From Synechococcus sp. (GTDB lineage: Bacteria > Cyanobacteriota > Cyanobacteriia > PCC-6307 > Cyanobiaceae), in contig JBJBEO010000001.1 in assembly GCA_047284725.1 (NCBI GenBank), positions 984,203 to 1,048,202 of the forward strand: a stretch of 64,000 bases of DNA, in the 5' to 3' direction. Positions within the stretch are counted from its first letter, which is position 1; each line of letters begins with the position of its first letter. Of the stretch, positions 35,790-47,551 are shown piece by piece. The notes beneath the pieces are model-generated. The model was not told the origin of the DNA and ran no database searches. It saw nothing but the letters and a program-made list of their open reading frames with translations. Made by a program: the position numbers and the translations under genes.

Positions 35790-35861
35790 GGGTCGCTAGC
35801 TCAGCGGTAGAGCATCCGGCTTTTAACCGGCTGGTCCTGAGTTCGAATCTCAGGCGACCCA
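35790..35861 (+). tRNA. tRNA-Lys (anticodon TTT)
   Basis: GGGTCGC/GCGACCC acceptor stem; anticodon loop CTTTTAA; GTTCGAAT T-loop. Confidence 0.97.
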
Positions 35862-35929
35862 TTTTTTCTTTCTTCCACCATCGCCAGGGATTTGCGTCAG
35901 GATGGTGGGTAATCCCGAGAGGTTGGCGA

Positions 35930-36331
35930 GTGGACGATGGGGGAACCCTGAAGTCGAACGTGCTGGTCGCTGTTGTGGACGACGACCCAAGGCTGAGGGA
36001 CCTCCTTGAGGATGAGCTGGTGGATCTGGGGGTTAATCCCTTGATCTGCAGCAGTGGTGTTGATCTCCTCGAGTTGCTCGATAGCACGACTGTCGACTTG
36101 ATTCTTCTGGATCTGATGATGCCGGAGATGGATGGTTTCTCCTGCTTGCAGGCGCTGCAAGAGCGCAACTATCAGGGGGATGTCGTGGTGGTCAGTGCCC
36201 ACGGGGATGCCAGTTACAGGCAGCAGGTGATCAAGGCCGGTGCCTCAGAATACGTTCGCAAACCGGATCTGTTTGATGCCTTGCCTGATCTGCTCAATCA
36301 ATTTTTAAATCAGTCATCGGTTTCTAGTTGA
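35930..36331 (+). CDS. Single-domain response regulator receiver (CheY-like)
   Basis: VVDDD, LLDLMMPEMDG, VVSA, RKP; all canonical residues present and no output domain. Confidence 0.9.
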   Translation: MDDGGTLKSNVLVAVVDDDPRLRDLLEDELVDLGVNPLICSSGVDLLELLDSTTVDLILLDLMMPEMDGFSCLQALQERNYQGDVVVVSAHGDASYRQQVIKAGASEYVRKPDLFDALPDLLNQFLNQSSVSS

Positions 36332-37489
36332 TGATTGAGGTGTTAGATTCTGGCATGGAAAGTGAATTAAAATGCAGGCGCCATGATTGTCAAATGAAAT
36401 ACTTTCTTGGTCCATCAAAATTTCAACCGTTCCACCCATGCCGACGATGAGCTCTTGAACAACCGTCAGGCCTAGGCCACAGCCTTCTTCTCTTGTGCTG
36501 GAGCGATGTTGCTCAAGTCGTTGAAACCGATCGAAAACGGAGTCGATTTTGTCTTGTGGTGTCTCAGTAATGCCTAGACCTTTGTCCTTGAATAATAAAT
36601 CAATGCCGCCACGAGAATTTCTGATGTCGATCGTAATCGAGACGGTTTGATCGCTGAACCGAAGGCTGTTGGACAACAGTTGATCAAGCACAATCTCTAG
36701 TGCATGACTGTCCAATCTGACACTCTTCAGCTCTGGATCGGCTTTCATGCTGATCAGTTCCTGTTGGTGCTGCGGAAGATGATCGATCCACTGACGCATG
36801 GAATCCTTGATCGATTGCTCCTGAATAGACCAAGGGAAAAGGGCCGTGTCCAAGTCTGAAAGCAACATCAGATTGTCCACGAGGGTTCTCAGGCGAAGGC
36901 TTTCGGATTGTGCTGTCTGAAGTGCATTGATGGCCAGGCTGGGGGCGGTCACCAATCGGCCCAGCCGGCGAAGACTTCCGGAGAGAATGGCCAGGGGTGT
37001 GCGGAGTTCATGGGCCAGCTGTTGTACAAACAACCGTTGCTTCTCAAAAGCCTGTTCGATGGGGTCAAGATTTCTGAAAGCAATGAGATGAAAGGGTTCT
37101 CGAGTGTTTGTGATTGCTTTCCAGCTCACGTTGTTCAGTGGTGCGTGGCGCTCAGGATTGTCGCTGACTCGTTTGACCCGTAGGCGCATATCGCCAGCGT
37201 TTTGCGTCAGGAGAAGAGATCTGGCATCCAGTGGTCTGGCTTCTCCATAGGGGGCTAACAAGATGATTCGATCTGCAAAGGATTGAGAGATCAGCGTTGC
37301 TGTCATTCCACGGCTGAAACGGTCGGCGGCTGTTTGATTGGCCCAGCGAATGGTGTAGTCACGATCGAGAATGACCATGGCATCACTAGCGCTGTCGAAT
37401 GCCACTTGAAGGAGTCCCAGTGACTGTCGCATCTGCGCCAGGAGTTCCTGCTCAGGCTCCTGCCTGTGTGGCCTGCTTTCAGCAGGCAT
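36314..37489 (-). CDS. Cytoplasmic PAS-domain sensor histidine kinase
   Basis: PAS-like N-terminus; AHELRTPL H-box, LLSNSLRF N-box, DKGLGI, VFDRF, GCGLGL. Confidence 0.9.
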   Translation of the reverse strand: MPAESRPHRQEPEQELLAQMRQSLGLLQVAFDSASDAMVILDRDYTIRWANQTAADRFSRGMTATLISQSFADRIILLAPYGEARPLDARSLLLTQNAGDMRLRVKRVSDNPERHAPLNNVSWKAITNTREPFHLIAFRNLDPIEQAFEKQRLFVQQLAHELRTPLAILSGSLRRLGRLVTAPSLAINALQTAQSESLRLRTLVDNLMLLSDLDTALFPWSIQEQSIKDSMRQWIDHLPQHQQELISMKADPELKSVRLDSHALEIVLDQLLSNSLRFSDQTVSITIDIRNSRGGIDLLFKDKGLGITETPQDKIDSVFDRFQRLEQHRSSTREEGCGLGLTVVQELIVGMGGTVEILMDQESISFDNHGACILIHFPCQNLTPQSSTRNR

Positions 37490-37862
37490 GGGGGCCTTCG
37501 AGGGGTCGAAGTGTCGCAGCGAAGCTCCAGCTTCCCGAGGTTTCGCGTTCGGCCACGATGAAGTGTTCGCTACGGATGGATGTGCCGTCACTGCAGAGAG
37601 TGACAAGCTCAAGGGGGTGATTGACGAGCTTGGAGGTCTCCGTGAGTTTGAAACGTGAGAAGCCGCTGTGGTGCTGCTCGCGGAATGAGGAAGGCAGGAT
37701 CACACCAATTGATTGGCCGACAATTGTGGTGTCCCAGCCATAGACCGTCTGGAACCTGTCGTTGAATTCAACGACATGGCCTTCTGCATCCGCTCGAACA
37801 AAGGGCAGATCATGGAGTTTCCTTAGGGCTGCAACGGCTCCGGGAGTCCAATCATCGGCCAT
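37479..37862 (-). CDS. Stand-alone PAS domain protein (FixL-like)
   Basis: FN..F...YGW....VGQSIGVILP..FREQH..GF.RF PAS pattern. Confidence 0.85.
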   Translation of the reverse strand: MADDWTPGAVAALRKLHDLPFVRADAEGHVVEFNDRFQTVYGWDTTIVGQSIGVILPSSFREQHHSGFSRFKLTETSKLVNHPLELVTLCSDGTSIRSEHFIVAERETSGSWSFAATLRPLEGPHAC

Positions 37863-37938
37863 GAACGGGAGGCAATGGTTGTCAGATTAGAGCGCTTCGC
37901 CTGCTCCGTCTGCCAACGGCCCGCTACAATCACAACTC

Positions 37939-38012
37939 CGGGGTATAGCGCAGTTTGGTAGCGCGCCTGCTTTGGGAGCAGGATGCCGGGGGTTCAAATC
38001 CCTCTACCCCGA
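37939..38012 (+). tRNA. tRNA-Pro (anticodon TGG)
   Basis: CGGGGTA/TACCCCG acceptor stem; anticodon loop TTTGGGA; GGTTCAAAT T-loop. Confidence 0.97.
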
Positions 38013-38500
38013 CTCCAGTTCAAAGTCAGTCAATGACTGAGGTCGACGCCTGGTTTGCAGGTGACTCTCTTTTTGCCTCCAACCAGCGATCCCCCTGGAT
38101 GCTGCGCCGACGGCGTCGACTGGTGGCGCCTTTGTGGCTTGTGGAGTGCATGTGCCTCCGTTTTGGCTAATGGGCAGAACCGCTTGGTTCGAAGGTTGTA
38201 TCCAGCGATTGTCTGAGCGATGCCAGCAAGCAGGCGCTGTGCACGTGTATGGGGATTGTCGTGAGTACCTGGCCGCTTGCCTTTGGATCACTCGTTGGGC
38301 CTGAGATGTTCTCTGGCTTGCCGTGAAGGCTTCTGCATGGCTCGATGGCGTGGTTTTTATCCATTCCATGGCATCAGAAGGAGGGCTTATGCATCAACCA
38401 GTCAAAGTCCATCGAACTTGCAAGGGGACCAGCAAGTAGGGTGATAGAAATGCTGAATCCTTCGTGAAGGTCGATTGCCAAGGTGCCTTCAGGGGGCTGA

Positions 38501-38743
38501 GTGATGAGTGATGCCCAGTTGATCATTCAACGGCTGACAGAGATTCTCGAGGTTGATTACAGTTGGCATGAAGAGTGTCGAGAAACCTGGGAAGGCAAGG
38601 GAGACACCAGCTGGATTGTGGCTGCTTTGCGTCAGGCTGATGAAGCTGCGGTGATTCGGTCTGCTGCTCACTCTGAATCTGTTGGAGAGGCTTTGGATTT
38701 TGTCGCCATGATTTTCGGTTGGGGGCTCACGGATGGGGATTGA
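38501..38743 (+). CDS. Small acidic hypothetical protein
   Basis: 80-aa ORF with protein-like composition. Confidence 0.5.
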   Translation: MMSDAQLIIQRLTEILEVDYSWHEECRETWEGKGDTSWIVAALRQADEAAVIRSAAHSESVGEALDFVAMIFGWGLTDGD

Positions 38744-38910
38744 GGGTTGCTTCTGCTGTGCAGTGGTGGCCTTGCGCTATTCCGATGTCACCAGGCTTGC
38801 GGAAGTTTGAAATGTCTAACGATCGTCTTCAATGCTCTGATTGGCTTCATCAGAAAAGCGCGAACCTGCGGCACCGTCGTGCGGACGACTGTCATGGTTT
38901 TTGTTGGCTG

Positions 38911-39210
38911 ATGGCTGCTGCTTCGGTGATGATCGTGGGCATGCCAGGTTTGGCTGGGCTGAATGCCTACACAGCGTTTGAACGGTTGGGTAATTGGCTG
39001 ATTGAACGAAAAACAACAGTTGATGGTGAGCATTCCTGCAGGGCATCGATCCCTTCAGGTGGTGCATGGTTCAACGAAAATATCCATCTGGATCGACAGG
39101 GCAAGTTGGTCATTCCTTCAGGTGTGAAGGGGGAGGCTTACCGGGATCGGATCCCTCAGGTTCGTGTCGTTTTGCAGCGATGTCGAGAAGAGAGCTATCA
39201 GCTTGAGTGA
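38911..39210 (+). CDS. Hypothetical secreted protein (start uncertain)
   Basis: Hydrophobic N-terminus; WLIERK...CRA...WF...IHLD...C pattern. Confidence 0.5.
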   Translation: MAAASVMIVGMPGLAGLNAYTAFERLGNWLIERKTTVDGEHSCRASIPSGGAWFNENIHLDRQGKLVIPSGVKGEAYRDRIPQVRVVLQRCREESYQLE

Positions 39211-39396
39211 AGCAGTAAGGGATTGGTGGTGAGAATGCACTATTTTCAAGCCATTTGTTTAATGGTGCGTTTGGGGCTTTGTTGACAGTTGACTGCTTGT
39301 TTGTTTGAAACAGGCACTGATTGTTGACCCAAGCAATCGATCGAGTTTGTGCTTTCACTGGATCTGAGACGGTCTGGGTTTTTTGTGCCGCCCTTC

Positions 39397-39752
39397 CTAG
39401 ATGAGACTTGTTGAGCCATTTTTGTCATGAAGATATGCCTTGGAGCGTTTGATTACTGCACCGGCTTTGTCCTCCGATTGGAAGACGATTGTGATTCTGC
39501 TTTGATTGCTCTTCAGGTCAGTAGCTTCTTTTTCTCGTGAGAATTTGATTCTTGTGTAGCTCTCTGGATGTGCCAGGCCTGAGACAATGAGGTCTTCGCA
39601 TGCTTGGGCCGCTTTGGACGCCATTAGCAAGGCGTCTGTTCGTGTGGGGCTGACGCGTTGATGGTGGAGTCATGGTCGCTCCACGCCGTGAGGGTGGTGA
39701 TAAGAGCTAGGAGTGGGCATGCAATCTTGAGGAAAGTGATTTGTTCGGCCAT
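39397..39752 (-). pseudogene. Possible frameshifted lipoprotein-like gene
   Basis: A signal-like ORF (39752-39624, ...LITTLTAWS) overlaps a second-frame ORF (39630-39397, AAQACEDLIVSGL...). Confidence 0.35.
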
Positions 39753-39785
39753 GGTCTTGATCAATCAGTTGTCTTTTCGTGGGGC

Positions 39786-39989
39786 TCAGTCTTCCAGCCA
39801 GTCTTCTGAGTTCATGTATGCATCTTCGAGTCGTGCCAGTGCGCCGAGCGTGGTTAAAGCGCGTTGTGCTGCTTTGCTGGTTTTGTCTTCACAAAGATGT
39901 TTGATGAGTGTGTCTCGGAGCGGTTGGTTCTCCATTTGTTTCTGTTCTTTTGACCATTTCAGCTTCGACGACGTTCTGCTTCTTGGCAT
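39786..39989 (-). CDS. Small hypothetical protein
   Basis: 67-aa ORF with basic N-terminus and acidic C-terminus. Confidence 0.45.
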   Translation of the reverse strand: MPRSRTSSKLKWSKEQKQMENQPLRDTLIKHLCEDKTSKAAQRALTTLGALARLEDAYMNSEDWLED

Positions 39990-40096
39990 CCCCCGTATGG
40001 GGGTATTGCTGTAGTGACTTTCTTGTGGCGGTTGATATCAAGTTCGCTTCTTGTGCCAATCGGGATTCGTGATTGGCGTCTTTGCTCTTTGAACGA

Positions 40097-40795
40097 TCAG
40101 TTCTCGTTCAGCCCAGCCTTAATGGCAATCACAGCAGCTGCCGTGCGGTCTTTGACGCCCAGTTTCCCGATGACAGCACTGACATGGCTCTTGACCGTTT
40201 CGGGTGAAACAAAAAGACGCTCGGCAATCTCTTTGTTTGTTCCTCCTGCGGCCAAGCAGGACAGAACCTCTCGTTCTTTATTGGTGAGGTCCTTGGGTAA
40301 GGGATGCTGTGGTTCGCTGGCATAGTCGGCGGCCCTGAGAACGTCCCGTGGGTAGTAGGTCGCTCCTGAGATGGTGCTGCGGAGGGCACCCATGAAATCG
40401 CCGTCCCCTCTGCCACCAAGGGATGATACAAACATCACCCCATTTGCGCCTGCTTCAATGCAATCTTGAACCAGAGATTTGGTCTCAGTGCGTAGAAAGA
40501 GGAGGCATATTGTGTCGGGACAACGTTGCTTGACGTTTCGGACCAGTGAGAGCCCTGAGCCTTGTTCGAGGTCTTCGGTGGCAAACAGCAAATCGGGAGT
40601 TGTGGTTTTCATCAGCTCCAGCACTTCCTCCTCCGATGTGCAGGCGCCTAGCAGACTGCGGGCAACGGGAGGGATGAGGCAGAAGGAGCCAAGTGTGAGC
40701 TGATCAGCCATGCAGGCGATGGATTGTGTGCCGCTCAGCAACTCAAAGGCCTCGCGCATTAGCTCGCTGTCGGGATTCTGAACGGCGTATTGCAT
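40097..40795 (-). CDS. NarL/LuxR-family regulator with atypical receiver
   Basis: C-terminal LTNKEREVL...GGTNKEIAERLFVSPETVKSH...KLGVKDR HTH. Confidence 0.9.
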   Translation of the reverse strand: MQYAVQNPDSELMREAFELLSGTQSIACMADQLTLGSFCLIPPVARSLLGACTSEEEVLELMKTTTPDLLFATEDLEQGSGLSLVRNVKQRCPDTICLLFLRTETKSLVQDCIEAGANGVMFVSSLGGRGDGDFMGALRSTISGATYYPRDVLRAADYASEPQHPLPKDLTNKEREVLSCLAAGGTNKEIAERLFVSPETVKSHVSAVIGKLGVKDRTAAAVIAIKAGLNEN

Positions 40796-40993
40796 GACGT
40801 TGAGGCTTTGTCCGAAGCCTTGTTCAACTTAGGCATGCTTCATCCTGTTTTCAGAGCGGGGCCTCCCCAGACGAGTCATGGTCCGAGAGCTGCCACTGAT
40901 GGCTTCATTTGACAGAGGCTGAGAGTGCGCCTTCTCCGATCGTGCTTCCTGGGTCACCCGCAGGCGTAGCGTTGAGCGACTGATGCCCATGCC

Positions 40994-41224
40994 ATGACCG
41001 TTGCTTCTGCGTGTCGGACGCCTGTATCTGAAGACACTTTGATTGATGCTCTGCGGGGTTGCGTGAAGGCGTCGCAGCTTTTGCAACTGAGAGATCAGTT
41101 GGCCAAGAATGATGCCAATCCCCCCCTGTTCAACTGGGTTTGCAAACTGTTGGTTGACCGCCGCATCTCCCGAGGACTTGCGTCCAGGGTGTTGCTGCAG
41201 CTGCATCACGATCAACCTCTTTGA
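40994..41224 (+). CDS. Small hypothetical protein
   Basis: 76-aa ORF; LFNWVCKLLVDRRISRGLA. Confidence 0.55.
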   Translation: MTVASACRTPVSEDTLIDALRGCVKASQLLQLRDQLAKNDANPPLFNWVCKLLVDRRISRGLASRVLLQLHHDQPL

Positions 41225-41233
41225 TGCGATTAC

Positions 41234-43342
41234 TTAGGCACTGACCAACCATCGCCCACTGATGGCGATTGTGATCATCAACACGCAGGCTGTCAGCCAG
41301 GCTCTGCGGTGGTGACAGAGGAGTCGTCTCAGGGTGATCACACTCGCCATGCCGCCTGCTGCGATCACGGCCGACTGACAGAAGCCGATCACGTGGGGAT
41401 CCGCTTGCCAGGATGGAAGATCCTTGATCCAGCCTGACGTCAGGGGGCTGAAGCTCACCGGCAACAGAGAGCCAGCTTCCTGCATGCCGATTGGCAGGTG
41501 AGAGGCCAGTAGCAGCGCCCAGAGCAGAGGTAACAGCCCGTACAACGTGCGTTGCAATCGCTGTGTTTCGAACACGAGGTGTGCGAGTTGGTAAATCGCC
41601 GCCGGCAGGGCCAGGCAGAGGCACGCCATGGCGAGGCGTGGCAGCCATGGTCCGCTGTGCATTGATGCCGGCGCGAGGGCACTCCAACCCCAGAGCGCTT
41701 TCCAATGCTGCAGACAGATGCTCCCCGTCAGCACCAGCAAGAGCCCCGGTTCTCCCCTGGGGATGACCATCTGACGCTGCAGATCGGCTGCTGGTGGGCG
41801 CACTCTCAACTGCACTGAGCGATGGGGGCAGGCCTGGGCACAAGTGAGACAGAGAACGCAGTTGCGGTTGTCGCGCAGGTGGGCCGGATGTGTGCCGAGT
41901 GGACACCCGCCCGAGGCCATGCCCTCGCCTTCTGATGGACCGCCCTTGAAACAGGCATAGCTGGAGCAGTTGCCGCTGCAGACCCCCGCCTGGGCCCGTA
42001 ATTCCAGAATCGAGAGCTTGGCGAACAATCCATTCATCCCTCCGATGGGGCAGAGATAGCGGCACCAGAAGCGCTTTTCGAAGCGGAGCGAGCCCACCAC
42101 CGCGCCCGTCGTGATCAGCAAGAGAAGCCCACTGCTCAGCCTGGCGTTCTGGGGAAGATCACACAGGCTTTCCCACAGGAGAATCGCCGCAAATCCGCCG
42201 GCCAACCAAGGTGACGCCCAGTCATCGTGATCTCCCCGAGGCCACGGCGCAGGCATCCAGCCCAGACGCTTGCTCAACCGCTGCACAATCTCTCCCCAGA
42301 CCATGAAGGGGCAGAAGGAGCACCACAACCGGCCCACCAGCGGGAACCCCACCAGGATCAGCGGCCACCACCAGGCCCAGAACAGATTGAGGGCTCCGTT
42401 GTGGGAACGATCCTGAGGCCCAATCCACAACCACAGATTGATCAGCACGAACAGCCAACTCACCAGGCCGAACAACAGGCCATTCCATAGCTTGGGCGAA
42501 CGCATCCATGGCCTCAGCTGAGGCTTCCATGTCCAGAGGTCAAAGCGAGCGACTGGTTTCGTGGGCGATGTCCAGAACACATCGGCGGGCACAGCCGTCG
42601 GTCGGTCCTCCTGGCGTCGCATCTGCTGCAGGGCCCGTTCGATCAGTGCTTCGAGTTCGCGCAGGTTGTTGGGGAAGTCGTAGTTCTGCAGTTCCTTCAC
42701 GACAGACAGGGGAACCGCGGGGGCCTGCTGCATGCCGAGACGCTGGCTTTGCTGCCGGATGCCGTAGCGCAGCCATTCCCCGAGGTCTTGCCGGCGCACT
42801 CTCAGGGGAGGAACCCGGATCAGTTGCACCACCGACATCAGTTCGGGGATGGCCTGTTCGGCCGTGATCAGCAGGCGCCCTGAAAAAGGGTGGTTGATGC
42901 CGGGTTGGGCGACCGATGGCCAGCTTCCATCGGTCGCCAACTGAACCAATGCTTTGCGCCCCCCTGGTTCCAACTGCTCGATGTTGTCGATCAGAAGGCT
43001 TCCCTCGCCAACAAGCTCCACCAGCGCAGGCCTGTTCTTGTTGTCGCCTTGGCCAAACAAGACGCTTTCATCGCTGGACATCTGGGCTGCGTCCAATCTC
43101 AGCATCAGATGGTGTCTGCGCCTTGATCCGAAGTGGATCAGCGCTGCCAGGTTGTCTTTCTCGAGGCCGGGCTCGCCCACGAGCAACACAGGCCTGGTGC
43201 TGGGGTCTGACGAGGCTTGATGCAGTTCTTCGCGAAGACGCTTGGCCTGGCGACTGCTGCCAACCACGCCGCGGCGGGGGCGGCCTACCAGGTAGGGGGC
43301 CAGTTGCAGCAGCGTTGCCTCGGGTGCCCAGTCCCCGTTCAT
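41234..43342 (-). CDS. Sigma54-activator-like AAA domain fused to a membrane 4Fe-4S polyferredoxin
   Basis: VVGSS...GEPGLEK...VPPLRVRRQDL...FPNNLREL, then TM segments with WCSFCP, WCRYLCP and CVLCLTCAQACP. Start at 43342 or 43357. Confidence 0.88.
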   Translation of the reverse strand: MNGDWAPEATLLQLAPYLVGRPRRGVVGSSRQAKRLREELHQASSDPSTRPVLLVGEPGLEKDNLAALIHFGSRRRHHLMLRLDAAQMSSDESVLFGQGDNKNRPALVELVGEGSLLIDNIEQLEPGGRKALVQLATDGSWPSVAQPGINHPFSGRLLITAEQAIPELMSVVQLIRVPPLRVRRQDLGEWLRYGIRQQSQRLGMQQAPAVPLSVVKELQNYDFPNNLRELEALIERALQQMRRQEDRPTAVPADVFWTSPTKPVARFDLWTWKPQLRPWMRSPKLWNGLLFGLVSWLFVLINLWLWIGPQDRSHNGALNLFWAWWWPLILVGFPLVGRLWCSFCPFMVWGEIVQRLSKRLGWMPAPWPRGDHDDWASPWLAGGFAAILLWESLCDLPQNARLSSGLLLLITTGAVVGSLRFEKRFWCRYLCPIGGMNGLFAKLSILELRAQAGVCSGNCSSYACFKGGPSEGEGMASGGCPLGTHPAHLRDNRNCVLCLTCAQACPHRSVQLRVRPPAADLQRQMVIPRGEPGLLLVLTGSICLQHWKALWGWSALAPASMHSGPWLPRLAMACLCLALPAAIYQLAHLVFETQRLQRTLYGLLPLLWALLLASHLPIGMQEAGSLLPVSFSPLTSGWIKDLPSWQADPHVIGFCQSAVIAAGGMASVITLRRLLCHHRRAWLTACVLMITIAISGRWLVSA

Positions 43343-44230: not shown

Positions 44231-44689
44231 ATGGCGATGACTAGAGGAGCGTCTTCGGCACCAGTGCAGGACCCCCTTCAACGGGGCCTGCACCGCGATG
44301 GTCGTCGCCTCACTCCCCAGCGACAAACAATTCTCGCGTTGTTCGAGCAGATCGGTGCTGGCCGCCATCTGAGTGCTGAGGATGTGCACCAGCGGTTGCT
44401 TGAGTCCGGCACCAAGGTGTCCCTCGCCACGATCTATCGCACCTTGCGCCTGCTCGTTGAGATGGGCTTCCTGCAGGAGTTGGAACTCAGTGAAGCCGGT
44501 CGACGCTTTGAGTTGTCGTCAGGAGAGCACCGCGACCACCACCATCTCGTTTGCATCCGCTGTGGTCGCACCGAAGAGTTTGAGAACACGTCGGTGCTTG
44601 ATGCCGGTCAGACGGCTGCAGATCGGCATAGTTTTGATTTGATTGAGTCCACGCTCAATGTGCGTGGAGTCTGCCCGGATTGCCGTTGA
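44231..44689 (+). CDS. fur: Fur-family metalloregulator
   Basis: RLTPQR, HLSAED, SLATIYRTL, HHHLVCIRCG, CPDC. Confidence 0.93.
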   Translation: MAMTRGASSAPVQDPLQRGLHRDGRRLTPQRQTILALFEQIGAGRHLSAEDVHQRLLESGTKVSLATIYRTLRLLVEMGFLQELELSEAGRRFELSSGEHRDHHHLVCIRCGRTEEFENTSVLDAGQTAADRHSFDLIESTLNVRGVCPDCR

Positions 44690-44726
44690 GTTGAAACCGG
44701 TGTTGGTGAAGCTCAGTGCAGGTTGA

Positions 44727-45188
44727 TCAGTGTGAATCTGTGGGGTGCTCGTTGCAGGGCATCCACAGTTTCCCCATGGCGTGCACCCCTGTGCAGCCAA
44801 GCTTTTCAGCTTCCTTTTCTGCTTGCTCTCGGCTTGGATAAGCCATCAGCGCGGGATTATCAGTCTTCTGATCACCGTGGTGTTGATGGGCGGAATCTGA
44901 GCCTTGGGGTTGGTCCAATCGAACCAGGCCCATGGAGAGTGGGCCAGCGGTCCAGACGCCCATGGTGTTCACCCCCACCGCCAGCAGACCCATCCCCACG
45001 ACGGACAGGTTGATCACTCCCATGGCCACGACCCCAATGGAGACGACGCCCATGGGGACAACGCCGATGCAGACCACACCCATGGGCACAATCCCGATGG
45101 AAACGGTTCCCAGCGGTGCGATGCCGATGGCGAAGCGCTTGGGCTTGCTGCCGCAGTGGGCAGGGCCGGAGTCCACAGGCGCGCTCAT
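44727..45188 (-). CDS. Gly-pentapeptide repeat protein with C-terminal DUF3721-like domain
   Basis: 14 x 5-residue repeats (13 begin with Gly); C-terminal AEKLGCTGVHAMGKLWMPC. Confidence 0.75.
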   Translation of the reverse strand: MSAPVDSGPAHCGSKPKRFAIGIAPLGTVSIGIVPMGVVCIGVVPMGVVSIGVVAMGVINLSVVGMGLLAVGVNTMGVWTAGPLSMGLVRLDQPQGSDSAHQHHGDQKTDNPALMAYPSREQAEKEAEKLGCTGVHAMGKLWMPCNEHPTDSH

Positions 45189-45245: not shown

Positions 45246-46349
45246 TCAGCTGAGAGCTCCACCACAGCTGCTGCCGCTTCCGGCTGTGCAACCGAAACAA
45301 TGCTCGGCCACCGTGATCGGTTGCTGTTCGATCTGTTCCGCGTTGCTGTTGAGCAGATCCTCCAGCGTCTGGGCCTCGGCTCCGCAAGTTAATCCCAGTT
45401 GTTGATTGAAGTCGCAGTCGTAGAGGGCTCCCTGCCAATCGACGCTCAGCAGGGAGCGGCACATCACCGCCTGGAGATTGTCGACCCGGAATGACTGGCG
45501 CAGAAGTTGCCGGTACTCCAGCAGTTGCCCTTTCTGTTCGAGGTCTCTGGCGAAGCGTTCGATCGCCATGTTGGTGATTGTGAGCAGCTGGTTGAACTGA
45601 ATGCCATGGTCGCGTTGGAGCGCTTCCCGATAGTGCGCTTCCAGGCCTGCCTGGGCTGGAGGGAGGCTTGGCCCCGCAGGGTTGTAGACCAGATCGAGCG
45701 CTAATCCCCTTTGGGGGTTGCCGAAGCCAAGACGGTTGAGTTGCTTCAAGCCTTCAATGCTGCGTTCAAAGACACCTCCTCCGCGTTGACGGTCGACCCT
45801 CTGTTGTTCCGTGCAGGGGAGTGACGCCACCACATGAACACCTTCGCTAGCGAGAAACGCTGCCAGATCCTCCTGTCCTGGTTCGTTGAGGATGGTGAGG
45901 TTGCACCGATCAATCACCTCCACGCCGAGGCTGCGGGCGGCCCTCACCAGATCGCGAAAACGGGGATGCAGTTCCGGGGCTCCACCGGTGAGGTCGAGCA
46001 CCTTGAGCTTGAGATGCTGCAACACCTGGGGAATCAGATCAATGTGGCGATCGGCCATCATTTCCCTGCGCCAGGGTCCTGCATTCACGTGGCAGTGACT
46101 GCAGCTTTGATTGCAGCGGTAGCCGAGGTTGACCTGAAGCGTTTGCAGGGTGCTTCGGTGGAGTGAAGGAAACAGCGTCGGTGCGGTGGAGGCTGGGGTG
46201 CTGTTGGGGTTTGACGTGATCAGAGGACCCCTCAGAAGCAAGCACCATTGTGAAAGATCAGGTGTGCCTGCATCGTTTGCGGTTCTGTTCTCTGAGGTGC
46301 ACCTGTTGGTGCAGGTCGTGGGATCTGAGGCCGCTTGACGGCCGACCAT
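45246..46349 (-). CDS. arsS: Arsenosugar biosynthesis radical SAM protein (ArsS family)
   Basis: LQVNLGYRCNQSCSHCHV, TGGAPE, DCDFNQ, C-terminal HCFGCTAGSGSSCGGAL. Start uncertain: TGATG-coupled ATG at 46349 or near 46223. Confidence 0.88.
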   Translation of the reverse strand: MVGRQAASDPTTCTNRCTSENRTANDAGTPDLSQWCLLLRGPLITSNPNSTPASTAPTLFPSLHRSTLQTLQVNLGYRCNQSCSHCHVNAGPWRREMMADRHIDLIPQVLQHLKLKVLDLTGGAPELHPRFRDLVRAARSLGVEVIDRCNLTILNEPGQEDLAAFLASEGVHVVASLPCTEQQRVDRQRGGGVFERSIEGLKQLNRLGFGNPQRGLALDLVYNPAGPSLPPAQAGLEAHYREALQRDHGIQFNQLLTITNMAIERFARDLEQKGQLLEYRQLLRQSFRVDNLQAVMCRSLLSVDWQGALYDCDFNQQLGLTCGAEAQTLEDLLNSNAEQIEQQPITVAEHCFGCTAGSGSSCGGALS

Positions 46350-47551
46350 CAGGCCGTTCGAGCGGCGAGCTGGCGGAACCACTGCACATAGTGCCGTGGC
46401 CCCCCAGGCATCAACACGTTGACCTGCAGTGGATCTTCGGGATCGCTGATGCCTCGAAGGTCGGGATCAGCGAGGCTCGGTCGATCCACTTCGCCGCCGC
46501 TGCTGTCCACCAGCACCACGCGGTTGGGCTGGTTGTAGCGCTCTCCGATTTCCTGGAGCAGGCTGAGGAAACCTCGGTCACTGCCGCCGCGCAACCAGGT
46601 GCCAGTCTCAGAGCAGAAGGTGGAGGTGACGGTATCGCCAATGCCGACAAGAAGGGGCATTTGGTCAAGGGGGATGGCCTGCTCGCAGAGCTTCAGCAGT
46701 TCTTCGTGGTCATGGGGAGCTGTGCGCACGTTGAAATCGTCCCCAAGAGGGGCCGTCCCGGTGCGAGCGGCGATATGGCGATTGATCAACACCAACAGGC
46801 CGGCCTCCTTGATGGCCCCGCGCAGCATGAATTGAATGTCGGTTGAGCCCACATCACCGGGTTGAGCCGGTTTCAGGCGCTCCTGTCCGGCAGCATCACG
46901 CCCCAGATTGGGGGCCACGTGGAGAAAGAAGGAGCTGCCCAGGCCATGGTCCGTGGCCTGCACGAGCAGGTCTTGCATCAGGTCCTCCAGCATGTGCTGC
47001 AGGGCCTGTTGCAGGCTGACGTCGTTGGGGCAGAGCGCAAACAGTCCGTTGAGATTGATGGTGGGAGATACCTGGGTGTCGAGCACCGCCTTGGTCACTT
47101 CCTGGCGCAACACGTCGTTTGGCAAGGACGGCATCAGCGGGGCAACTCGCGTCTCCAGTGCGGTTTCCATCCGCTTTGGCAAGGCAGCCAGAAATGCCAT
47201 CTCTGCTTCACTGACGCCGGGATGCGACAACTGGCCGTGATTGTCTTGCAGTTGAACCCCTCCAGCTGCAAGGCCTGGAAGGTAAAGCCCGTCGCGCGCT
47301 GCCCGGTCGGGATCTCCCAGGGCCTGTTCCACCAGTCGATTCACCCCTCGCTTGCCTTCGTGCTCACCGTTGGTGAGGACGAAGAAATGTCCGCTCATCT
47401 GTGCCACCGCCTCGACGTAGTCGGGATCCATCCGGCGGGTCAGGGGATCCTTCACCAGCTCCATGCAGACGCCATCGAGGTCTTGAACGATGAGCAGGTT
47501 GTCGATGCCTGAGATCTCGTTCAGCAGTTCATCAGGAGTCAATCTCGGCAC
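46349..47551 (-). CDS. stpA: Glucosylglycerol-phosphate phosphatase
   Basis: HAD motif QDLDGV; LTNGEHEG, GDTVTS, RGGSDRGFL, VDSSGGEV. Confidence 0.92.
   Translation of the reverse strand: MPRLTPDELLNEISGIDNLLIVQDLDGVCMELVKDPLTRRMDPDYVEAVAQMSGHFFVLTNGEHEGKRGVNRLVEQALGDPDRAARDGLYLPGLAAGGVQLQDNHGQLSHPGVSEAEMAFLAALPKRMETALETRVAPLMPSLPNDVLRQEVTKAVLDTQVSPTINLNGLFALCPNDVSLQQALQHMLEDLMQDLLVQATDHGLGSSFFLHVAPNLGRDAAGQERLKPAQPGDVGSTDIQFMLRGAIKEAGLLVLINRHIAARTGTAPLGDDFNVRTAPHDHEELLKLCEQAIPLDQMPLLVGIGDTVTSTFCSETGTWLRGGSDRGFLSLLQEIGERYNQPNRVVLVDSSGGEVDRPSLADPDLRGISDPEDPLQVNVLMPGGPRHYVQWFRQLAARTA

Follow-up and report, generated by a model that had tools for sequence, protein, structure and literature searches.

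What does a gene labelled as a sigma-54 transcription activator do in a cyanobacterium, when cyanobacteria are reported to be without sigma-54 (PMC3162934)? The question is raised by a stretch of 64,000 nucleotides from Synechococcus sp. (assembly GCA_047284725.1, contig JBJBEO010000001.1, positions 984,203 to 1,048,202; the window in what follows), where the database gives this label to a gene on the reverse strand at 41,234-43,342, a single open frame of 702 residues with zero internal stops. A preliminary description, made from the letters alone, had read the product as a degenerate AAA+ domain of the bacterial enhancer-binding protein (bEBP) type fused to a membrane polyferredoxin, and had taken it for a pseudo-ATPase or nucleotide-sensing domain and not for an activator. 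By its sequence the protein is a member of the Slr1529 family (cNMP-AAA-Fer4_5; cNMP, cyclic nucleotide monophosphate), as a variant without the cNMP-like domain. The family itself is already known; new here are its link to low oxygen, an origin in anaerobes that have sigma-54, and the disappearance of the cNMP-like domain.

Pfam matches over the cut-offs were obtained for Sigma54_activat (E 2e-8), AAA_lid_14, Sigma54_activ_2 and Fer4_5, so that both families named beforehand were recovered; AAA core and lid occupy the first 260 residues and two Fer4_5 stretches lie in the remainder. Five proteins of the genome matched PF00158, with this one at the top. The motifs quoted in the preliminary description were all located, including those of the bEBP scaffold (VVGSS at residues 26-30, VPPLRVRRQDL at 177-187 and FPNNLREL, which is given in Table 1 together with GEPGLEKD and LLIDN) and those of the membrane half (WCSFCP at 340-345, WCRYLCP at 426-432). 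No helix-turn-helix (HTH) family was found by Pfam in the 702-residue protein at E ≤ 0.1, in agreement with what had been noticed by eye, and every score with the NCBIfam models of bEBPs and NapH was far under its cut-off. A promoter and terminator scan at the gene gave chance level only. A chance fusion or a sequencing artefact was ruled out by full-length homologues, which span 93-100% of the query in the 120 listed of 2495 matches among 8000 candidates, and by an independent public-run contig (X5, record 11) which crosses the domain junction with 11 of 500 letters differing and no gap; the fusion is genuine. The contigs from runs labelled as metatranscriptomic are flagged as probably DNA and cover the gene in part; they are not evidence on expression.

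The Walker A sequence GEPGLEKD is degenerate, as described before, compared with the canonical GESGTGKE present in three of three true bEBPs taken from neighbouring loci; overlooked had been that Lys62 is intact (150/150 cyanobacterial sequences) and that the P-loop is near-invariant, G56, E57, G59, L60, K62, D63 and N64 being found in 124/124 picocyanobacterial and 26/26 other cyanobacterial sequences. GAFTGA occurred in none of 151 aligned representatives and the loop at its site is shortened, with a median of 16-18 residues in cyanobacteria versus 24 in bEBPs and anaerobe members. After 42 of the 151 rows had been left out because less than 85% of the core was covered, 109 near-full-length representatives were obtained, and the DE pair of Walker B was seen in none of these; LLIDN is indeed non-canonical, and NN is read in 95% of the other cyanobacterial members. 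Two further changes had escaped the preliminary description, the replacement of the sensor I Asn by Glu162 and the deletion of the arginine-finger helix. E162 is invariant in the 124 + 26 main-clade cyanobacterial sequences and rare elsewhere (7% of the paralogue clade, 16% of anaerobes), sensor I and PPLR are 16-17 residues apart versus 28 in bEBPs, and the R-finger motif was found in 0/132 family members versus 3/3 bEBPs; these motif counts come from alignment columns, in which distant rows may be misplaced. Of 20 picocyanobacterial members 95% have the sensor II Arg, and of 20 other cyanobacterial ones 50%. G-x-S, G-E-x-G-L-x-K-D-N, P-x-x-R-V-R-x-x-D and D-F-P-x-N-x-x-E-L, which are nucleotide-pocket motifs in bEBPs, are invariant in a 32-sequence alignment.

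The AlphaFold model of the AAA module (pLDDT 76.7) resembles DmpR, NtrX, FlrC, FleQ and VpsR (Z 17-20), with Z 19.9 and a root-mean-square deviation of 3.1 over 230 residues for DmpR and Z 19.4 and 3.8 over 229 residues for NtrX. Close pairs of relatives gave a ratio of non-synonymous to synonymous substitutions (dN/dS) of about 0.12-0.17 for the AAA module, which is therefore maintained by purifying selection; for the iron-sulfur core the ratio was 0.04-0.08. Taken together, the module looks catalytically dead, since the Walker B Glu, the sensor I Asn and the arginine finger, and with them the residues for hydrolysis and ring coupling, are lost, and the term pseudo-ATPase appears appropriate. 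Judged from sequence and model, it is an AAA+ fold unable to contact sigma-54 or DNA. The AAA+ core is shared with sigma-54 bEBPs, but GAFTGA, the Walker B DE pair, the sensor I Asn, the arginine finger, the HTH and rpoN are all missing here. Atypical bEBPs (VpsR, Brucella NtrX, TyrR, HupR) have the same fold, and VpsR is reported to be likewise without GAFTGA and the Walker B DE pair (PMC6158489), but they keep the HTH and act on DNA, whereas the window protein has a membrane iron-sulfur domain instead and a deleted arginine-finger helix.

The model of residues 265-702 (AlphaFold, pLDDT 95.8, pTM 0.93) has nine long helices, and PF12801 was matched there in two stretches with 34.2 bits, compared with a gathering score of 22; by this match the membrane half is a Fer4_5 polyferredoxin. 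Among 125 sequences twelve Cys are conserved, ten of them invariant and two in at least 90%, and all twelve were present in 105 of the 109 near-full-length representatives. C341-x2-C344-P of the first Cys-Pro motif was found in 100% of the 124 + 26 cyanobacterial sequences and in at least 90% of the 125 wider ones, while C427 and C431 of the second motif and all eight Cys of the ferredoxin domain (455-505) are invariant in the latter. These eight Cys would be enough for two [4Fe-4S] clusters, whose binding is predicted; a Pfam Fer4 match at 491-507 stayed under the cut-off. By helix count, the AAA module would share one face of the membrane, presumably the cytoplasmic one, with the ferredoxin domain and the two Cys-Pro motifs. 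Conserved columns of the cyanobacterial sequences contained no His inside the membrane helices, so there is no sign of haem.

With other Fer4_5 polyferredoxins (NapH/MauN, CcoG/FixG/RdxA, FtrD, NosR) the protein has in common that a Cys-Pro motif comes after helix 2 and another after helix 4, with ferredoxin motifs behind them; unlike these, it has five further helices, an atypical first cluster motif (C-x3-C-x4-C-x15-CP) and the fused AAA module. The membrane module with two Cys-Pro motifs and ferredoxin motifs stood; the models of NapH/MauN quinol dehydrogenases, with 37.1 of 213 bits (TIGR02163) and 24.3 of 234 bits (PRK09477), stayed under their cut-offs. Neither a napG nor a ccoNOQP context was seen, and a ccoNOQP/ftrABC operon did not recur among the neighbours examined. 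No solved structure matched the membrane half convincingly (best E 0.083 with Foldseek, 0.37 by sequence search), and a fold search with VIA returned generic helical bundles (best Z 8.9), which is no proof of a new fold. Homologues of the membrane half without the AAA module, of about 460 residues, were seen in Actinomycetota, Chloroflexota, NC10, Deinococcus and others (L062, L100, L101, L104, L108, L113, L145).

Did the motor decay because sigma-54 was lost? As had been supposed, rpoN is missing: none was found in the 99.98% complete genome by a profile that scored in 4 of 14 control genomes, and among 251 genomes of the picocyanobacterial family one was over the cut-off. This single rpoN-like match (G555:C15:26718-27152) lies in an assembly of 150 contigs with 3% contamination and is probably a contaminant. 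With rpoN, GAFTGA and HTH absent, the protein is not a sigma-54 transcription activator. A profile built from distant representatives, however, revealed at least 80 loci in Thermodesulfobacteriota, Nitrospirota, anammox Planctomycetota, Bacillota and others, most of which encode the same AAA-membrane fusion, some with additional GAF or FHA domains. The Walker B DE pair was found in 0/89 distant representatives and a GAF-like remnant of GAFTGA in 12/89, and the anaerobe members keep the full length of both loops that were shortened in phototrophs. Of the 80 loci listed, 50 anaerobe genomes were tested and 42 carried rpoN. Since the dead ATPase occurs in rpoN-bearing anaerobes, sigma-54 loss is ruled out as the cause of decay, and the idea of a repurposing peculiar to a lineage without sigma-54 had to be given up. 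The death of the motor thus took place in hosts that had sigma-54 or, at the least, did not depend on its loss.

The cyanobacterial rows and the algal or unnamed ones came together as a single branch (support 100, stem 1.21) in a membrane-domain tree built with FastTree, in which root and donor lineage are not resolved; a tree of the AAA module had too little resolution to tell in which direction transfer went. No conserved metabolic partner was found in the anaerobe neighbourhoods among the 80 loci listed, where the commonest cluster (hisD, gidB, leuB-like, prs) occurred in 9-11 loci, mostly of related Desulfobulbia-type or delta genomes. Some anaerobe members stand directly behind a CHASE2 adenylate cyclase gene or ahead of SpoIIE-RsbW-STAS genes, and others behind a kinase and a canonical NtrC-type regulator (L042, L045 and L079 in anammox bacteria, L058 and L085 in Bacillota, further L051, L055 and L063).

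Within the cyanobacterial phylum sample (families f1-f29), 81 of 127 genomes from 25 of the 29 families had a match. Nearly all of these matches were full-length, most being about 850 residues long with a cNMP-like domain at the N-terminus; another 33, outside the class, were weak and partial. In the family of the window 141 of 251 genomes matched, or 139 once two weak matches (G400, G539) were dropped, and in genus g4 the gene was found in 0/23 genomes (1.6-1.7 Mb in those listed). Together with algal members, of which Trebouxia, Picocystis, Edaphochlamys, Ostreococcus and Chromera are named, and with the anaerobes this is an old family and not a local oddity. A profile of the cNMP part matched 0/121 picocyanobacterial proteins and nothing at the window locus, an N-terminal part of at least 120 residues was found in 0/20 picocyanobacterial members, and a search for a detached cNMP domain in the genome gave one match, weak and far off (E 6e-4, contig position 16 kb). 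The picocyanobacterial form has lost the cNMP-like domain while its AAA module is still under purifying selection. In the other cyanobacteria the domain is degenerate: its GE motif is missing in 20/20 main-clade cyanobacterial members, whereas the Gly is invariant and the Glu present in at least 90% of 44 distant representatives, as read from an alignment, which was used instead of regular expressions for the phosphate-binding cassette because these undercounted in anaerobes.

A shorter form of about 657 residues in genus g135 is encoded beside a Zur-like regulator, and its Walker B has decayed further (L158, L166, L167). A second cyanobacterial paralogue of about 880-970 residues (L148, L149, L172-L181, P0130) shows the canonical P-loop GKT in 13 of 14 rows, and its gene is usually the one immediately upstream of cysK (10 of 13 loci first classed as paralogue, of which L171 groups with the main clade). 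In several loci genes for rhodanese, DsrE, DUF2892, a petC paralogue, ArsR, psbA or cydAB are near, twice on plasmids, and this neighbourhood looks like a sulfide or low-oxygen island.

A close described relative is Slr1529 of Synechocystis PCC 6803 ('NtrX', nitrogen assimilation regulatory protein). P0310 (BAA18301.1), tied to slr1529 by its product name alone, is 43% identical over 682 residues and shares the AAA and Fer4_5 domains collinearly; unlike the window protein, it has 835 residues and a degenerate cNMP domain. The annotation of Slr1529 as a transcription factor is wrong. FesM of Synechococcus sp. PCC 7002, reportedly needed for cyclic electron flow and photoheterotrophic growth, is described as a 4Fe-4S protein with a cAMP-binding domain, in agreement with the long form of the family; the window protein, unlike FesM as so described, is without a cNMP-like domain. 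The title of the original report names FesM as a membrane iron-sulfur protein (Xu, Liu and Zhao 2005, Plant Physiol 138:1586; PMID 15980195), and the window protein is probably its orthologue, a putative assignment made by likeness of description. For Slr1529, growth, metabolite and transcript data were the only published data found: the deletion is reported to leave growth in air and light unaffected (p 0.74; PMC5318462), which would be expected if the function is conditional, and to shift metabolites at 72 h.

Under which condition might the gene matter? A cluster of acsF, ho, hemN, an ado paralogue, a desaturase gene, genes for a pentapeptide protein and an ArsR regulator and sometimes psbA is often next to it in relatives. 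Both ends of the acsF-ho2-hemN cluster and both orientations occur: the gene directly follows hemN and reads the same way in L151-L153, is convergent with it in L191, and lies past the ArsR and pentapeptide genes in L160, L190 and L192-L194. The chlAII(acsF)-ho2-hemN cluster is reported to be induced by low oxygen in model strains (PMC4500134). Among the 251 family genomes, 87 had hemN and the gene, 2 hemN without the gene, 52 the gene without hemN and 110 neither. The gene was present in 27/27 cydA-positive genomes and in 105/109 genomes with the ArsR gene of the cluster; in the feoB control it was present in 96 of 107 feoB-positive genomes. Nesting of hemN persisted within four mixed genera (p values of 0.08, 0.023, 0.047 and 0.14), but that of feoB mostly did not (0.40, 0.37, 0.35 and 0.14), in tests which ignore kinship among genomes. 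Of the 87 genomes that have the gene and hemN, at least 12 from five genera have them at most 10 kb apart (12 of the 25 pairs that share a contig), as read by eye from place tables in which 13 gene matches have no listed place, and the gene was within 8 kb of the cluster ArsR gene in 16 genomes of eight genera. The cluster ArsR-family regulator itself, found in 109 of the 251 genomes, is highly conserved and divergent from acsF, where PCC 7002 has ChlR (loci seen: L151-L153, L160, L162, L168, L190-L194), and was free of Cys in 11/11 copies read.

Within the window the gene is a solitary one, bordering a lower-GC stretch that carries two tRNA genes. This stretch (35,790-41,000, GC 0.49-0.55 around tRNA-Lys and tRNA-Pro) also holds a response regulator, a histidine kinase, a small PAS-like open reading frame and a LuxR-type regulator and looks like a genomic island. 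On the other side, 0.9 kb from the gene, is a Fur-family gene, convergent with a GLTT-repeat/DUF3721 gene (44,231-45,188 for the pair) and adjoining arsS (45,246-46,382); the same block flanks the gene in L150. The protein of the window groups with hemN-adjacent copies (support 89 in the membrane-domain tree and 98 in the AAA tree), which suggests that the gene outlived the cluster in this host.

Table 1 Features of the gene for the AAA-polyferredoxin fusion, in positions of the window.
Feature	Positions	Strand	Details and basis
Whole gene	41234..43342	-	702 aa (P0001), degenerate AAA+ module and membrane polyferredoxin
AAA+ core and lid, enhancer-binding type	42572..43273	-	Residues 24-257; Pfam, model, dN/dS
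Walker A GEPGLEKD	43154..43177	-	Residues 56-63; Lys kept, Glu replaces the preceding Gly
Shortened loop at GAFTGA site	43004..43060	-	Residues 95-113
Walker B LLIDN	42983..42997	-	Residues 116-120; catalytic Glu lost
Sensor I position (Glu162), deleted arginine-finger helix, PPLRVRRQD motif	42785..42859	-	Alignment
Sensor II region FPNNLREL	42653..42676	-	Residues 223-230
Membrane domain, nine long helices	41240..42496	-	AlphaFold model, residues 265-702
First Cys-Pro motif C341-x2-C344-P	42308..42322	-	Conservation columns
Second Cys-Pro motif C427-x3-C431-P	42047..42064	-	Conservation columns
Ferredoxin-like domain, eight Cys (455, 459, 464, 480; 495, 498, 501, 505)	41825..41980	-	Conservation, Pfam

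The reading that we favour, tentatively, is that of a membrane electron-transfer protein for cyclic or respiratory flow at low oxygen or with an over-reduced plastoquinone pool, whose AAA module is a non-hydrolysing switch that possibly reads ATP/ADP. It would be an integral membrane iron-sulfur protein, probably located in the thylakoid, whose clusters would shuttle electrons between soluble ferredoxin and an acceptor in the membrane, either NDH-1 or the plastoquinone pool, a transfer that would matter when oxygen is low or the pool over-reduced. The AAA module would serve as a switch or scaffold and may sense ATP/ADP via its conserved P-loop and lid, thereby gating the redox domain. In evolution, an anaerobe bEBP consisting of sensor and AAA domain would have exchanged its HTH for a membrane polyferredoxin and lost its motor motifs, phototrophs would then have deleted the dead loops and picocyanobacteria would have dropped the already degenerate cNMP domain. 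Several observations weigh against this proposal. In the host genome the gene is not accompanied by hemN, ho2, a second acsF, the cluster ArsR or cydA, and since this genome shares the absence of hemN with 51 other gene-positive genomes, the low-oxygen link is not obligatory; no low-oxygen cluster was near the main copy in eight other cyanobacterial loci checked (L182-L189), either. Habitat and genome size explain part of the pattern, because kin are not independent and feoB co-occurs, too. Low-oxygen expression data for the gene were not found in the literature. No FesM-named sequence turned up in any search made, and the kinship with FesM is putative. Furthermore, the Walker A Lys is kept in just 72-79% of anaerobe and algal members, and the Glu preceding it may block phosphate binding. 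Finally, the mRNA of Slr1529 is reported to fall with high copper (0.29) and with iron deprivation (log2 -1.17 at 12 h), which fits a role in metal metabolism equally well.

Such a role is the core of an alternative that we consider unlikely, a membrane metal reductase of the CcoG/FtrD kind, in which Cu(II) or Fe(III) would be bound by the two Cys-Pro motifs and receive electrons from the clusters; the metal would be supplied to oxidases or iron-sulfur enzymes and an effect on cyclic electron flow would be secondary. CcoG, reported to be a cupric reductase (PMC8267372), is of the same Pfam family and has the Cys-Pro motifs, and besides the copper and iron response of Slr1529, a Fur-family gene is found no more than about 6 kb away in 6 of 43 cyanobacterial loci, of which the window holds one. 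On a Rhizobium plasmid a homologue without the AAA module (27.9% over residues 320-521) stands behind genes for an iron transporter, a cupredoxin and FTR1. It is presumably FtrD, but the FtrD-like row is on a very long branch (2.89). Neither was feoB enriched within genera in three of the four tested, nor did a metal transporter recur beside the gene in the 80 non-cyanobacterial loci listed.

A membrane sensor of oxygen or redox state resembling RdxA/NosR, with the iron-sulfur domain as input and the dead AAA module as a docking surface for output, seems improbable to a similar degree. The partner in picocyanobacteria could be the ArsR-family regulator at the place of ChlR; its close association with the gene argues for this, and being free of Cys it cannot hold an oxygen-sensing cluster of the type reported for ChlR (PMC4500134). 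The sensor domains of anaerobe members (cNMP, GAF, FHA) and their signalling neighbours (adenylate cyclase, SpoIIE/RsbW/STAS, kinases) fit as well, but these sensor domains precede the AAA module, which suggests that it relays signals to the membrane domain and not from it; moreover, algae keep the gene, and 34 gene-positive genomes, the host included, are without the cluster ArsR. A special form of this alternative, quite doubtful in our eyes, is a two-part oxygen sensing of picocyanobacteria instead of ChlR, in which the iron-sulfur protein would read oxygen or the redox state of plastoquinone and the AAA module would hold or release the Cys-free ArsR driving acsF2-ho2-hemN-psbA; if true, a former sigma-54 motor would have been re-wired as a membrane signalling adaptor. 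It is very unlikely that the AAA module is still a slow ATPase that makes the membrane domain cycle between conformations, with Glu162 in the role of the missing Walker B Glu. The invariance of K62 and E162 in the main clade and the sensor II Arg of picocyanobacterial copies speak for it, but the arginine finger is missing, Walker B has decayed to NN in most other cyanobacterial members, and E162 is missing from most of the paralogue clade and the anaerobes. The annotated reading, a transcription regulator (NtrX-like, dependent on sigma-54 or sigma-70), is suggested by the database names and by the atypical bEBPs VpsR and NtrX, reported to function without GAFTGA or Walker B (PMC6158489), but in view of nine membrane helices, the lack of HTH and rpoN and the retention in algal genomes it is largely refuted and has hardly any probability left.

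The family to which the gene belongs extends from cyanobacteria and algae to many anaerobes and carries the wrong label of a transcription factor, and its membrane half has no solved structure. If the protein is FesM, the link to low oxygen gives a component of cyclic electron flow that was described twenty years ago and barely followed up a testable condition, microoxia or over-reduced plastoquinone, that is accessible in common laboratory strains. In this family, a transcription motor would have been turned stepwise into a regulatory module of a membrane redox protein.

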